Of a stretch of 64,000 nt of DNA, positions 640 to 63,398 are shown piece after piece; position 1 is the first letter of the stretch; every line of letters starts with the position of its first letter. This stretch comes from Octopus vulgaris (taxonomy: Eukaryota), in NCBI GenBank assembly GCA_951406725.2, contig OX597819.1, positions 4,402,001-4,466,000 on the forward strand, in the 5' to 3' direction. Made by a program: the position numbers and the translations under genes. Under the pieces are notes generated by a model. That model saw only the letters and a program-made list of their open reading frames with translations. It did not search any database and was not told the DNA's origin.

Positions 640-677
640 CAGTACCGGTTTCGGTCATTTTGAGACCTTTTCAACTG
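640..677 (-). ncRNA. Minimal type I hammerhead ribozyme, U3:A8 variant
   Basis: Minus strand: CAG-UUGAAAA-GGUC(ucaaaau)GACC-GAAA-CCGG-UA-CUG. Helix I, helix II and a palindromic helix III are all formable. Confidence 0.75.
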
Positions 678-1004
678 TAACGATTAAATAATTAAATTTA
701 GAAAAATTAGAAGAAAAGTTTTTTTAAAAGAATATTTCTGTAGTAGTGTTCAGATATAAGTAGCATTCTGCCTTTCTCTGACTCCCTTGTTTGCACTTGT
801 GTGTTCGAGGTCGTTTTGAGTTCTTGGTAGGATAGGTGAAGAATAAGGAGGCTGATGTGGAGAGGGGGTGGGGAAATCTGGGAATGCCTTAATGGTCGTA
901 TTTTGAATGGTCAGTGGCTGACAGTAGTCGCAGTTCAATTCAGGAATTGTTTATGGAATTTGCGTAGGCGTTATACTGAAAGACATTAGTGACAAGGTTA
1001 AGGG

Positions 1005-1230
1005 GTGGAAGGTGGAGAAGTAGAAGAAGAAGAAGAAGATGACGATGTTGATGATGATGATGATGATGAAGAAGAAGAAGAAGAAGAAGAAGAAGAAGAA
1101 GAAGAAGAAGGAGAAGGAGAAGATGGTGGTGATGATGGTGGTGATGATGATGACGACGATGATGATGATAATGATGATGATGAAGAAGAAGAGGAAGAAG
1201 AAGAAGAAAAAAACAGAGAAGGGAGAATAT
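1005..1230. repeat. (GAA)n/(GAT)n trinucleotide low-complexity tract in the PLE 3' region
   Basis: Visible repeats. The poly-E/D and poly-K ORFs here are by-products. Confidence 0.9.
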
Positions 1231-1334
1231 GAATGGGTGAAAGTATAGCTGTGATGGGGCTGATTAGTAATGGATTCTATGGAGTGTAATATTTGTGTGT
1301 GTATATATTTCTTTTATTCTAAAGTTGAGGTATA

Positions 1335-58140: not shown

Positions 58141-58404
58141 TAGTGGCTCTCAATAAGTTGGGTTTTTTTGCCTCTGGACCCCTTGAATCTTATTTTACTC
58201 TACTGACCTCTATAGCCAATTCGATGCATATAAAAAAAAATATCCCACTGTATTTTAATAATTAAATATTAGGAATTGTATTCAACAGCTGTTAAAATTT
58301 TTTGCTTATTGCAGAATTATAAATAATTTATTGCACGTAAATTTTAACAACAAAATCTTATATGGAGACCCAAGGGCCATATGCATCCCGGTAGAGAACC
58401 ACTC
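58141..58404. mobile_element. hAT-like MITE
   Basis: Ends TAGTGGCTCTCAA / TAGAGAACCACT with subterminal GGACCCC-type motifs. No clean 8-bp TSD seen. Confidence 0.55.
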
Positions 58405-61400
58405 TACATTTCAGAGGTTCTCTCTCGCAGAGAGTTTGGAATCTGGGAGCGTAGAGAGAAACAGATTTTTGTTTAAAAGATATGCTGCTGTCCAAGGGAA
58501 CAAGACTGCTTCCACCGATGTTTTGCAGTGGCTACAATTTAATGAAATGGCATGCTATAGTAGAACTGGTCATGATGAATAGGTACACGCCATAGATACA
58601 AAAAAATAGAAAGCACACGCTCAATTTAAGATGATATCGGAGTTAATCCCTTATCAGATTCAGCGTTTTCTCTATTCAGGATTTCTAAAGCAAATTTTTA
58701 ACTAGTTTACCCATGAGCTATTTAAGATTATTGCAAAGGTAATAGATTCTACTTCTATTAAAATATGCGGGGCCGTATCTAATGTTCGTAGAAAGTGTGT
58801 GCAGATATATTATGCTGTGCATTGCACTTATTCTCTATGGAATATATGCGCACACTGAATGTTTGTGCAAATGTAAACTTGAAATTACAGCATTATTAAT
58901 TAGAAAATCATATTTCATAAATAATAGATTATCAAATGTGAAGTTCACAATCTGTAACTGCGCAGAAATCAGAAGTGTTTCAACTTCAGGAGACCGTTTG
59001 TCTACGTGAAAACACAAAGACGATTTCTAACAGTCAGCAGCATACTTGTATCTCTTGATACGTTCTCTGGATAACAGACACAGCTAAGAGATTACTTTCG
59101 ATAAATATAGTTTCTAATTATAGCTCCGTTAGCCAACTATTTCTTCTATGCATAAAATATTTAATTTTGTGTGCTGGTTGCAATACGTATGTGCACGCAT
59201 GCGCACACGAACGCAGCTTGAAGGAACAGTTGTTAATATCATTGTAAGTGCATTGTATGCATGATATGTCCCTAGTAATATATGCAACGTGCGGCGTGAG
59301 ATTTGAGTGTTTAGGATTATGTACATGATAATATGATAATTATTGTATACCTGTAAATGGGTGTATAGTGTTTAAGGTAATGCATATGTACATGACTTAC
59401 TTTCTACTTAGACATTGATTTCCAGTTGATGAAAAGCAATGTACAATACAGAGTTAGATAACTGTTTCAGTTCATGTATGGAAGCACAGAGACTGTGTGT
59501 CCCTATTTGCTTACGAATGTGTATCTACATTTGCATGTCTGCCTGTGCGTGCCTTCGTACTTGCGTGTATTTGTGTGCGTACGTACGCTCGAGTATATAC
59601 GTGTACGTAGGTGAATGCTTATGTGCGACAGCGTGTGTTCACACATGCGTGCATGGAAAGTGGAACTGGATATAAATAATGATAGATTCTGGAATATAAA
59701 TAGAAGACGGAATAACATTCTATTGAAGCAATAATGAATTTCTGCTGTGAATAGAAAACGATGTTGTAAAACCATTCTAAAAATTGCATCATAACAAAAT
59801 TGCTTTCCTAAATATTTGTAAAACCTATTAATATCTGTGTGTGTGTGTGTGTGTGTGTGTGTGTGTGTGTGTGTGCGTGTGCGTGCGTGTGTGTGTGTGT
59901 GCGTGTGTGTGCGTGTGCGTGTGCGTGTGTGCGCGCGCGTTTGTGTGCGTGTGTGCGCGCGCGCGTTTGTGTCTAGTAGCCCTATGACGATACTGTTGTG
60001 GTCATTCCAGTGACGAAACTCGATAAGCTTTCAAGTCTTTTTAGTGCTTCTGTGACATTGACTGTAATTCAATTTCTGTTGGTTTCCACATCAGATTCAA
60101 GATGCGATGCCTTTGAAATAGAATAGCTATCATAACATTACTGAGAAAGCTAAACTGAACGCTTTCTAAACGGTCCGTTTAATTATTGGAATATGTTATC
60201 GAATACGCAAGTTTTTATTGATTTTTATGTCATTCCGCAATTGAAACTTCACGTTTGTCATTTTATTTCGTTCTTTCGCCTCGCAGCAAAATACGAGCTT
60301 CTGAATAATAATTATTTGTCTGGCCTCTTCGGTTACCTTTCAGAAACAACCACTGGTCACCAGCAAAGGTGTTAGCGATAGGCTTCCTCGTTATTCCTCG
60401 ACTACAATGTCCTATACTTGGCAAGTGTTATCAACCTCAGCAGTTTTCTTCTCATCAATTCCATCTTTTTGGGAAGTATTTAGAAATTCCTTTACTAATT
60501 TCGATCTTTAATCTTTTCAAAGTGAGCAGGCTGATAAATAGATAACAATATTGGGCTCTAGGCAGAGTGGGGGGGGGATGGTGCGACTAGTTCCGTAGGA
60601 GCAAGAGAGGAATAATAAAAGAAATAAAGCAGAAAAATAAGTAGAAAGACAGATATTTAGCAGCGACAAGGATTCTTGGCAGAGTTATTATTGACATGAA
60701 TGCCAAGACAAATTGAGGCTGTCATAGATTTTAAGGGCTACTGTTATATTTCATGCCAGTTACCTATTCTACTGAATTATTGCTCTGCCCTATTAGATTT
60801 TCCTTGCTCATTTCACTTGTCTCATTACCTTTTTATTGCTTTATGTTCTATTGGCTGACCAGAAGTATCAAATTATGTTTCAGGGTTTTCTCTTCTCTTC
60901 CTGTTTCTCAAATATTCTATTTTGTGGCTACTTTGTATTTACGCAGAGGCTACGTTTGATTCCGAGCGGTCATAAAATCTCCATTACACAATTCAAAATG
61001 GAATGTTCTCATCGGCATTCTACTTTATCACTTCAACTAATATACGTCAGTGAATAATAAAATAGGTCTCCGATACAACAGAACTAACCCGTGTCGACTA
61101 ATCAACTCTTCAGTAATCATGCTGAAATGAAAATGATTTTAGATTATTATATTAAAAATCTAAATGCGTAAATAAATGTTCAAGTCAGTGAAGCACTACA
61201 TATATTCTTTCTGCTGTTTCTCAATGAACTGAGAGACAGGTTGCTTGATATATCAAGCATAGAACAATACGGGGAAGCCAAACGCGAACCTCTATTAAGC
61301 TTAAGCAAATAAATGAGAATGTTATGAACCGTTCTCTGTCAGAAGACTTTCACAGAGCCAGATTATAACAAATCACAATGTTTCAAATAGTATTGTTGTT

Positions 61401-63346
61401 TGTATTATTTCAAGTCGCTTTAATCAGAATTCTCGAATTATAAACGTAAACTATTTTTCTGCGTTTCCCTTCAAGTTTTATTGATCACTAATCAGTTTAT
61501 AGAAAATAATATCGATATCCAAGCTATTTGTTTAAAATTGCTTCTTTGTAAAATCATACGATTTCATTTTGATAACTTCTGTTGGCAAACAAATATTGAA
61601 GTCATTGTGACATTTTCGGCATTACTCTTCTTTCAATTACAATTACTTAAAGGGCTCTTTAGGCAATAAAAATAGCTCCAAACCTCGTAATCATGTTTCG
61701 TCGAAACAAAACTATTAATCATGCGCTTTTAATCTCGGAGGGGAACTTTTCAAAGTGATGAGATTGGTGTTGGGATAATAACTATTCTATTTTTAAAAGA
61801 TGCAAACACTCATCTGTTAATATTTAGCGAATGAAAGTTGTGTGTGATTAGCGGAGATTACACGATAGAAATAAGCTAAGTTCGGGATTTCGTATGTCGT
61901 AATGAAGCGTATAATAAGTAGTTAATGGCTGATAGACATAAGCCGAATCCCTTAAATAAGAACACAATGTTTTGCCCTGTATTACTGGACTCCATCATTA
62001 TGTCAGCCAAACTGAGTATTTTAGGATCTGTTTCTGTGTATTTATTTTTAATTTCCTAATTTCTAGCTTCGTCTACGAGCGTCTTGTGTTGTGTTTAAGC
62101 TTATCGTATTATAGGACCAAATTAGTCACAGAATTACTAAAACTATGTTTATAACTTTACTTAATATCACTCGATAAAATATTTAAAATTCTGCTCAGCC
62201 TGTTGCTGATGCTGGTGCTGGTGGTAGTCTCAAAAATGTCTTGTATACAAAATGCTGGTTATTTTGATAAAAACTATTTGTAAACTCATAACTGAAATTC
62301 TGAAATAATGTGCAAACGAACAAACATAATGTTTTGGGATAAATATTTATATGTTTGTCTCTGTTACGAGGTGTGTTCATACGTACGCATATTCTCTCAC
62401 AAATTCTTAATCTGATCTCTGTATTTATAGTCTAATTGCAAAAGTTATGCAAAAGGAAACCTATTTGAACTATTGCGTTTGATAACTGGGCTCATTAGTC
62501 TCACAACAGTTGTCTGATTTTAATTTACATTCATCAAAAGCTTGCTGAGTTCCACAAATTTTACCCTCCCGTTTGGGCTGACATAACAGACTATGACAGT
62601 CTAATGAGATGAGGAATTCGGTTTAGCTGGTGAAATACATTGTCCTTCGTTAGTGAATGTACTTGATCACCTCGCACACAGTACTTACTAACCAGTGCTT
62701 TAATCTATCATCTTTATTCTAATCTACAGAACTTTGTCCTCTTCCACATTCCCCTATTTTCAGTTCATTTGAAGATTTATAAACAATTTCGAAAACGTGA
62801 TTAATATATTAGTCCTAAATGCTGTCTTTATCTACAAGAGTAGAAAATATTCTGTTGCAGATTGTACTTCATTTAGCCAATCTTCTCAACTGCCTTCATA
62901 CCAATATCTGATTCGATATATTCATTGTCATTCATATAAAATGGAATACTCAAAACACCCTTTCTCTCTCTTAACCAGTCTTCGTAGGCTCGAAACGTGA
63001 AAGACTTTTTCTATTTCTATTCCTGAGCGCTATACTAATACATTTGTTTGTTTGTACTCCACCTGCCTTCGTCTTTTGTTTATTTTCGTAAACTTTCCCA
63101 TTATATTATATATATATATATATATATATATATATATATATATATATATATATACTTGGAATGACCCATTTTAAATTCTGTTGGATTTTACTCATAAGGT
63201 ATTGGAATCTTACATATATACCATTCTACCTAAAAAATGGATCTACAAATTCAGTATGAAAAGAGATATATATACATATCTCACATCTATTTTCTTTCCT
63301 CCACCTCCTATCTAAATTAACTATTTCTTAACCATCCTCTCACACC

Positions 63347-63398
63347 GTCTCCGATGAAGGGGTATAATTAATAAATATCTTAGAAACAACTGTAAGAC
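63347..63398 (+). ncRNA. Type I hammerhead (U4C core) in an orphan pLTR-like segment
   Basis: GUCU-CCGAUGA-AGGGGUAU...AUAUCUUA-GAAA-CAACUG-UA-AGAC. Related to 28084-28181. Confidence 0.72.

Follow-up and report, generated by a model that had tools for sequence, protein, structure and literature searches.

Hammerheads of predicted type SGC in repeats of the Octopus vulgaris genome, and their setting among minimal type I hammerheads of Penelope-like elements

The 64,000 nucleotides of Octopus vulgaris DNA analysed here and called the window below (4402001-4466000 of contig OX597819.1, assembly GCA_951406725.2, coded G000:C6) are AT-rich, densely packed with microsatellites and part of a 2.8-Gb genome in 227 contigs. 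They hold thirteen hammerhead motifs that had been picked out in a preliminary description made from the letters alone and, in addition, an 833-bp repeat in which the hammerhead blocks stand in the order S-G-C. In the account that we consider probable, the thirteen belong to the minimal type I class and mark the 3' ends of Penelope-like elements (PLEs) or sit in derivatives of these that are truncated or without an open reading frame (ORF), and the S-G-C repeat likely forms a self-cleaving double pseudoknot. What carries the S-G-C case was seen directly: the order of the blocks, the intact letters of the core, paired changes on both strands of helices I and III across families, tandem arrays, copies that share one 3' end within TA runs but are ragged at the 5' end, and the lack of any long ORF. 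A broader proposal, which we favour by a narrower measure, is that ORF-less parasites of PLEs may form a clade of several families whose RNA is processed by thousands of active type-SGC ribozymes with a built-in off/on switch of fold, the 5' ends of the copies recording the cleavage of templates in vivo.

Block order and repeat families of the S-G-C motif

Among all CUGANGA cores in the window, that at 26234 is preceded by GAAA and that at 7230 on the minus strand is not. Around 26234 the blocks run as S (helix III arm, UH, helix I arm), a short linker, G (helix II arm, GAAA, helix III arm), a spacer and then C (helix I arm, CUGANGA, helix II arm), the linker from stem I to stem II in such motifs being about 1-6 nt, depending on stem extension. 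A type II hammerhead at 26234 was considered and rejected, as helix I fails to form in that order. The family of 26234 is here called A; the core at 7230 belongs to a second family, B, whose longer copies have the same block layout in different letters. This is the order of the type SGC ribozymes (Eckert et al. 2023, PMC10085705), which cleave in vitro and have a linker of about 3 nt from stem I to stem II, and the window motif has in common with these, as that paper presents them, the order itself, the short linker, a local stem III, the full core and an extra base after CUGANGA. It differs in lying in mobile repeats of an animal chromosome, in a helix II rich in wobble pairs and in an extended stem III, the extension being only 75% paired in a MAFFT alignment because of indels there. 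The accessions given with PMC10085705 are IMG/M contigs, save one bacterial GCS record of another type, and the words 'octopus' and 'metazoa' occur 0 times in its supplement. Judged by their letters, the S-G-C motifs agree with the sequence criteria of type SGC except in stem II covariation and in the extra I-II helix, and no earlier report of such a hammerhead in an animal genome or retroelement was found in the literature searched, which left out most subscription papers.

Across the genome, a pattern for blocks G and C matched 6,376 times and its reversed control 58 times, and two patterns for the full S-G-C motif matched 1,533 and 1,780 times (3,313 together, in several families, with 0 in the control). 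The window itself has a single match to a generic SGC descriptor, at 26185-26246, and there were 0 in 200 shuffles. A structural SGC test was passed by 12 of the first 30 unselected pattern loci, those failing it including 11 truncated between S and G and one chance match, and by none of 119 loci from a metagenome scan with a similar pattern. The standard descriptors for types I-III would miss S-G-C motifs, and so other genomes may hide more.

All 19 other family A copies are 97-99% identical, with a common 3' end in TA runs and ragged 5' ends, and nine of the 19 loci are partial tandems with a period of about 833 bp (two of them one array). In the window the family A element interrupts the 3' untranslated region (UTR) of a PLE remnant, PLE3; that the 833-bp unit is the terminal repeat of PLE3 was rejected because 14/14 other PLE3 copies run into a different 3' end. 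The anatomy of S-G-C insertions is that of PLEs: the 3' end is constant and lies in (TA)n, and copies may be 5'-truncated, partly tandem or inverted. Contigs of four runs guessed to be RNA, none of the runs listed being recorded as such, cover 28-30 of 30 bins with no end pile or informative joints, and are neutral on expression and cleavage. The family A stretch also has a share of 0.43-0.59 in runs of three other organisms. The locus L156 (G000:C1:10787089-10792589) has two mutually inverted copies of the most divergent SGC family, in which the helix II arm differs and a helix upstream that competes for this arm has changed to match.

Covariation, fold and the case for cleavage

Alignment A1 holds 31 of 65 distinct motifs, truncated copies, chance matches, near-duplicates and one further motif being excluded and nine motifs that fail the structural test being retained. 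In it 94.6% of the cells are paired, against 85.5% in shuffles and 34-62% in slid controls, and two-sided change occurs in 7/14 pairs (4/5 in helix I, 3/5 in helix III and 0/4 in helix II) and in 63 cells against 21 in shuffles. The sequences are kin, and therefore the two-sided changes were counted on a tree of the 3' flanks; at least 14 are needed, at least seven in helix I and at least seven in helix III, on a tree that includes one non-homologous flank and whose support values were unexamined. All 31 rows keep U16.1 and none has G as the letter at the cleavage site, though the search pattern constrained neither position. Most S-G-C families lack a palindromic helix III.

The 5' ends of copies are gathered near the predicted cut. 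Eleven of 29 unselected S-G-C copies start at −1 to +12 of it, compared with 2, 1 and 1 in three successive 17-nt windows adjoining it upstream, an excess with a binomial p of about 3e-5 for a window that was picked after the fact and in a pattern set that cannot show 5' ends beyond +12. In family B, 12/20 copies start between +6 and about +26, 8/20 start at −66 or beyond and none between (seven of these ends were measured and the others read by eye, and three may share one origin). Each end was placed by extending the match to relatives that are 65-100% similar, so that positions are likely to be off by a few nt. The pile-up just after the predicted cut suggests cleavage in vivo, in that a template starting at the cleavage product would explain it, stalling of the reverse transcriptase (RT) being the rival cause, and it makes template cleavage directly testable from genome data.

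In the scheme that we propose, a tandem array would be transcribed and the local S-G hairpin (helix III) would expose in its loop the arms of helices I and II, with both of which block C, lying 20-30 nt further downstream, would then pair. The RNA would be cut after GUH, and conserved alternative hairpins would hold the ribozyme inactive until it refolds. After cleavage the monomer or multimer, perhaps as a circle, would likely be copied in trans by the RT and GIY-YIG protein of a PLE, priming at nicked (TA)n. On a cleaved template, synthesis of complementary DNA would end close to the cut, so that copies would begin just past the site, and uncleaved or circular templates would give copies exceeding one unit. 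The role of hammerheads in PLEs is stated as unclear (Craig et al. 2021, PMC8557442). Non-circular permutations of the ribozyme previously came from environmental contigs with hosts unknown, and a chromosomal, multi-family animal set supplies a life cycle and thousands of natural variants.

A number of observations weigh against this scheme. With block C, helix II makes a weak stem of four pairs (C-G, U.G, U.G, C-G), which is 98% paired, nearly invariant and free of two-sided change; its strand also pairs with an upstream GAAGG to make a competing helix that does covary (3/5 pairs). Minimum free energy (MFE) folds consist of separate hairpins (one upstream, the S-G hairpin and one hiding block C) and not of the active fold, the program being one that cannot fold pseudoknots. 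For the extra I-II helix of published SGC ribozymes, an all-pairs screen showed no clear covarying helix; conservation of the G and C cores is circular except in families A and B because the search pattern fixed those letters; and pairs are broken in several of the 31 aligned copies. The type I family with a 363-bp unit, described below, has no pile-up of 5' ends at its own cleavage site. An autonomous PLE with an S-G-C motif was not found in 92 loci with a reach of 1.5-6.5 kb upstream, and for that reason the mobilising protein is deduced from the insertion anatomy only; one of the 92 has a Hydra-like fragment 1.3 kb upstream as a possibly linked neighbour.

Two other accounts of the S-G-C motif have to be set against self-cleavage by a double pseudoknot. 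It is conceivable, at a rather low probability, that the motif cuts between molecules, the S-G hairpin of one monomer pairing with block C of another monomer or RNA, such that only multimeric transcripts are cut. The weakness of helix II, the conserved local hairpins that sequester block C, the occurrence of the elements as tandems and the dimer dependence reported for PLE and retrozyme hammerheads (PMC4209133, PMC7229834) would all suit such a route, whereas the block spacing is tight, conserved and like that of the monomeric cis-cleaving SGC ribozymes as described in PMC10085705, and the prevalence of non-palindromic helix III among the families also speaks against it. Slightly less probable still is a structured but catalytically dead relic, or a packaging signal, with the 5'-end pile-up arising from RT stalling. 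Such a relic would be consistent with the absence of two-sided change in helix II, with 5' ends centred at +5 to +11 and not at +1, with the strong truncation hot spots of the type I families of 11703 and 13749, where no ribozyme was identified, and with the cleavage seen for 1 of 9 retrozyme dimers in a preprint (Li, Clavereau and Pollet 2026, 10.64898/2026.07.22.740005). Yet the cleavage triplet, U16.1 and helices I and III have been kept through at least 14 compensatory changes, and a stalling enzyme should presumably halt where it meets the hairpin from the 3' side (about +25 to +35), whereas the ends lie inside the loop, in a set where ends past +12 are invisible. Self-cleavage by the double pseudoknot remains the reading that we prefer.

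Type I hammerheads, Penelope-like elements and retrozymes

Thirteen foldable type I hammerheads had been claimed for the window, and every one was found at its position (640, 7520, 26994 and 55067 on the minus strand). A relaxed type I scanner made 12 matches, comprising ten of the thirteen and two weak unrelated ones (47170, 50035), against a mean of 1.5 (sd 1.3, max 7) in 60 dinucleotide shuffles, a comparison that bears the claim out. Of those remaining, 28084 was picked up by a stricter scan, 37222 has helices I and II in its MFE fold and 7520, with a helix II of just 2 bp, was confirmed by eye only. The core with helices I and II in the order C-G-S, above chance, is accordingly present in the thirteen, with 7520 marginal and 13749 having A6U. 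The short helix III is mostly palindromic, as had been described, with 7 exact palindromes among the 12 scan matches against 0.13 (max 2) in shuffles and with exact palindromes in family copies of 26994, 27282 and 63347, 37222 being an exception. Cores vary from CUGANGA to UUGAAAA (640, 7520), UUGAUAA (17217), CCGANGA (11703, 54713, 63347) and CUGUUGA (13749). Folding energy by itself is not significant (z < −2 in 1/13 folded stretches), and in an Rfam scan of the window no hammerhead family was present among the matches listed (150 of 164), which are microsatellite-driven and miRNA-like.

The thirteen are of a known kind, the minimal type I hammerheads of PLEs. Those described from metazoan PLEs (Cervera and de la Pena 2014, PMC4209133) likewise have a minimal or palindromic helix III, an extra nucleotide after A9 and a U3-A8 core variant, and occur as many sequence types per genome, mostly as single motifs left by truncated PLEs, together with pairs on opposite strands at distances of 100-700 bp. 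Two differences are that the CUGUNGA core of the 13749 family is not met in the text of that paper as far as it was available, and that the S-G-C motif is not of type I. So many minimal hammerheads are an ordinary density for a PLE-rich genome, because one helix II-GAAACGU type alone has 37,321 genome matches, with 0 in the control.

Eight of the thirteen (640, 17217, 7520, 55067, 55405, 26994, 27282 and 37222) are the 3' ends of PLE families with RT and GIY-YIG, 640 and 17217 being assigned from the ORFs that precede both in the window. The genome was searched with 10 units, those of 640 and 17217 excepted, and the best-scoring copies were read at 12-30 loci per unit, a choice biased towards copies that equal or exceed the query in length. 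That only two motifs adjoin a PLE ORF, as had been stated, is thus true within the window and untrue of the families. In the 7520 family the ORF lies directly upstream in 9/11 other copies. The motifs at 55067 and 55405 form an inverted pair of Hydra-like PLE 3' ends, whose longer copies are 97-98% identical and enter an ORF with DKT and CxCX5C; their parent, L217, has the Hydra-clade marks (DKT, CxCX5C linker, C-terminal GIY-YIG). With L213, L217 (G000:C18:56905500-56912500) makes up a young, nearly intact Hydra-like PLE family, its copies 97-98% identical and its 3' UTR 1.5 kb, which Pfam does not detect. Another inverted pair, 26994 and 27282, has ragged 5' ends and a similar PLE ORF in 1/5 long stretches, the longer copy L206 being similar in the endonuclease region only. 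Ragged 5' ends are seen also for 37222, with a remnant of RT end and endonuclease in 1/4 long stretches; Pfam gave nothing useful for this remnant and an Atlas comparison gave unnamed eukaryotic clusters only. Assignment of 37222 to Naiad was dropped, since the remnant carries an endonuclease motif at its C-terminus. Like the Hydra- and Neptune-clade PLEs of PMC8557442, the elements here have partial tandems, inverted 5'-truncated copies, 3' tails and (TA)n targets, and the clade marks of that paper recur as DKT and CxCX5C in the parent of 55067/55405 and as a CX4CxxC linker in PLE1, the clade names Hydra and Neptune resting on motifs, with no tree used for PLE classification.

For three further motifs, 11703, 13749 and 63347, longer parent copies exist and an ORF was not seen in any that was read. 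In the 11703 family 18/19 other copies begin within about 25 nt upstream of the query start, and 182 exact matches reach further upstream, several of the 12 fetched continuing for hundreds of bases. This 5' truncation hot spot at 11645 (loci L071-L090, L387-L398) lies 60-85 nt upstream of the hammerhead, beside a GUC triplet and a hairpin, and may mark either a short family in its own right or a site of processing not recognised so far. In the 13749 family 3/14 other copies extend past the query. This very abundant family (window 13754-13781) keeps helices I and II and GAAACGU with the core CUGUNGA (A6 to U), and so may be either a tolerated variant or a dead ribozyme still spreading. Copies of 63347 have ragged 5' ends and reach at least 540 bp, with no ORF found in the copies read. 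The older unit of 28084 has a 5' start common to 3/4 copies seen.

The preliminary description went on to read the eleven ORF-less motifs as a population of separate non-autonomous families, and this now appears very improbable. It is true for 54713, likely for 28084 with its shared 5' end and possible for 11703 given where most of its copies start. However, longer copies tie six of the eleven to PLE ORFs, the three motifs with longer parents come on top of these, and the check for ragged 5' truncation went against the reading for most units, ORF-linked longer copies being seen. As a general statement it is refuted by those longer copies, and the eight PLE-linked motifs are taken to be mostly 5'-truncated or inverted PLE copies and not separate families. 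That hammerhead retroelements without an ORF exist here is borne out by the 363-bp tandem unit at 54665-54930, and the remark that hammerhead units sit in TA runs was confirmed.

That 363-bp family has a period of 362-364 bp, spans more than one unit at 24/30 loci and has an inverted copy at 15/30. A contiguous ORF is present at 0/30 loci, one having a separate PLE fragment upstream, past a TA run. Its search gave 2,160 candidates against 77 exact motif matches, an example of why such candidate totals from DNA searches are not copy numbers. Animal retrozymes (PMC7229834; 10.64898/2026.07.22.740005) are described as ORF-less tandems with one hammerhead per unit and monomers of 51-972 bp, and have been argued to be non-autonomous PLE derivatives (10.64898/2026.07.22.740005). 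The layout of a non-LTR (long terminal repeat) retrozyme, with tandem units, one hammerhead each and no ORF, is found in both the 363-bp and the 833-bp families, whose longest sense ATG frames are 38 and 55 codons, and a type I hammerhead in the 363-bp family only. The 363-bp unit fits the retrozymes directly and the 833-bp unit in layout; since a type I hammerhead is part of what defines a retrozyme, the 833-bp family and its relatives, which carry S-G-C, are retrozyme-like in their working but not counted as members. The arrays here differ from retrozymes in being short and dispersed in TA runs, and the groups named in the preprint (10.64898/2026.07.22.740005), in so far as its text was available, include no cephalopod.

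Feature coordinates and other elements in the window

Table 1. Hammerhead motifs, PLE remnants and ORF-less elements located in the window
Position	Strand	Feature	Remarks
637..680	-	Type I minimal hammerhead, UUGAAAA core, in PLE1 3' UTR	Scanner
1335..3605	-	PLE1 ORF, RT and GIY-YIG, Neptune-like zinc-finger linker; 5' end cut by SINE-like repeat	
7093..7248	-	5'-truncated copy of second SGC family (B), block C only	Full S-G-C in longer copies
7520..7556	-	Degenerate minimal hammerhead, 2-bp helix II	In 5'-truncated copy 7400-7731 of ORF-bearing Neptune-like PLE family
11703..11737	+	Type I minimal hammerhead, helix III ACGU	Unit 11645-11838; most copies ~215 bp, longer parents exist
13749..13786	+	Hammerhead-like motif, CUGUUGA core	Unit 13674-13885; longer parents exist
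15137..16584	+	PLE2 ORF remnant: RT C-terminal half and GIY-YIG, one frameshift	
17217..17258	+	Type I minimal hammerhead, UUGAUAA core, in PLE2 3' UTR	Scans
23741..25531	+	PLE3 remnant: GIY-YIG part and 3' UTR	Normal 3' end replaced by family A element
25528..26445	+	ORF-less element, family A: one 833-bp monomer and ~85 bp of the next; 3' end in TA run	98-99% identical copies, tandems
26185..26246	+	Predicted type-SGC hammerhead	S 26185-26194, cut predicted after 26189; G with GAAA at 26205; C with CUGAAGA at 26234
26992..27097	-	Type I hammerhead in inverted copy, truncated Hydra-like PLE 3' end	Scanner and family copies
27280..27380	+	Type I hammerhead in direct copy, same insertion as 26992..27097	Scans
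28084..28181	+	Type I hammerhead, older unit 27895-28365, shared 5' end, no ORF seen	Stricter scan
37222..37266	+	Type I hammerhead, full CUGAUGA core, 5'-truncated PLE 3' end	MFE fold; longer copy with ORF, C-terminal GIY-YIG-like motif
54665..54930	+	266 bp of ORF-less 363-bp tandem monomer, retrozyme-like, between TA runs	
54713..54757	+	Type I minimal hammerhead, CCGAUGA core, palindromic helix III, predicted cleavage after 54751	Scans
55067..55144	-	Type I hammerhead in inverted copy, truncated Hydra-like PLE 3' end (54955-55505)	Scanner
55405..55482	+	Type I hammerhead in direct copy, same insertion as 55067..55144	Scanner
63347..63398	+	Type I hammerhead, unit 63155-63470, ragged 5' ends, no ORF seen within 1.5 kb	Scanner

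The three PLE ORF remnants in the window with RT and/or GIY-YIG are at 1335-3605 (-), 15137-16584 (+) and 23741-24661 (+). A degenerate hammerhead of the UUGAUAA type, with a palindromic ACAUGU, belongs to the normal 3' end of PLE3 (L111-L125, downstream of the equivalent of 25531), which the window copy lacks. In the PLE3 3' UTR four to five repeats of 92-93 bp (24874-25261) carry the words GATTGG and TGACGTC, which we take to be a reversed CCAAT and a CRE-like word, an array that to us resembles an internal promoter or enhancer.

Elsewhere there is a mariner-type transposase frame (PF01359) at 5967-6878, another copy of which interrupts a 13749-family element in L262. Remnants of long interspersed elements (LINEs) occupy 7743-10789, with APE endonuclease and RT pieces at 7743-9676 (-) and C2H2 zinc fingers at 10316-10789. 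Two open frames at 18782-20319 (331 and 159 aa) have no Pfam match, and the first ends in a CCHC knuckle-like motif and is LINE ORF1-like. Families of repeats resembling short interspersed elements (SINE-like) are present at 32-369, 11191-11528, 27414-27751, 17271-17675 and 3667-4051, and hammerhead units often sit in TA runs behind them.

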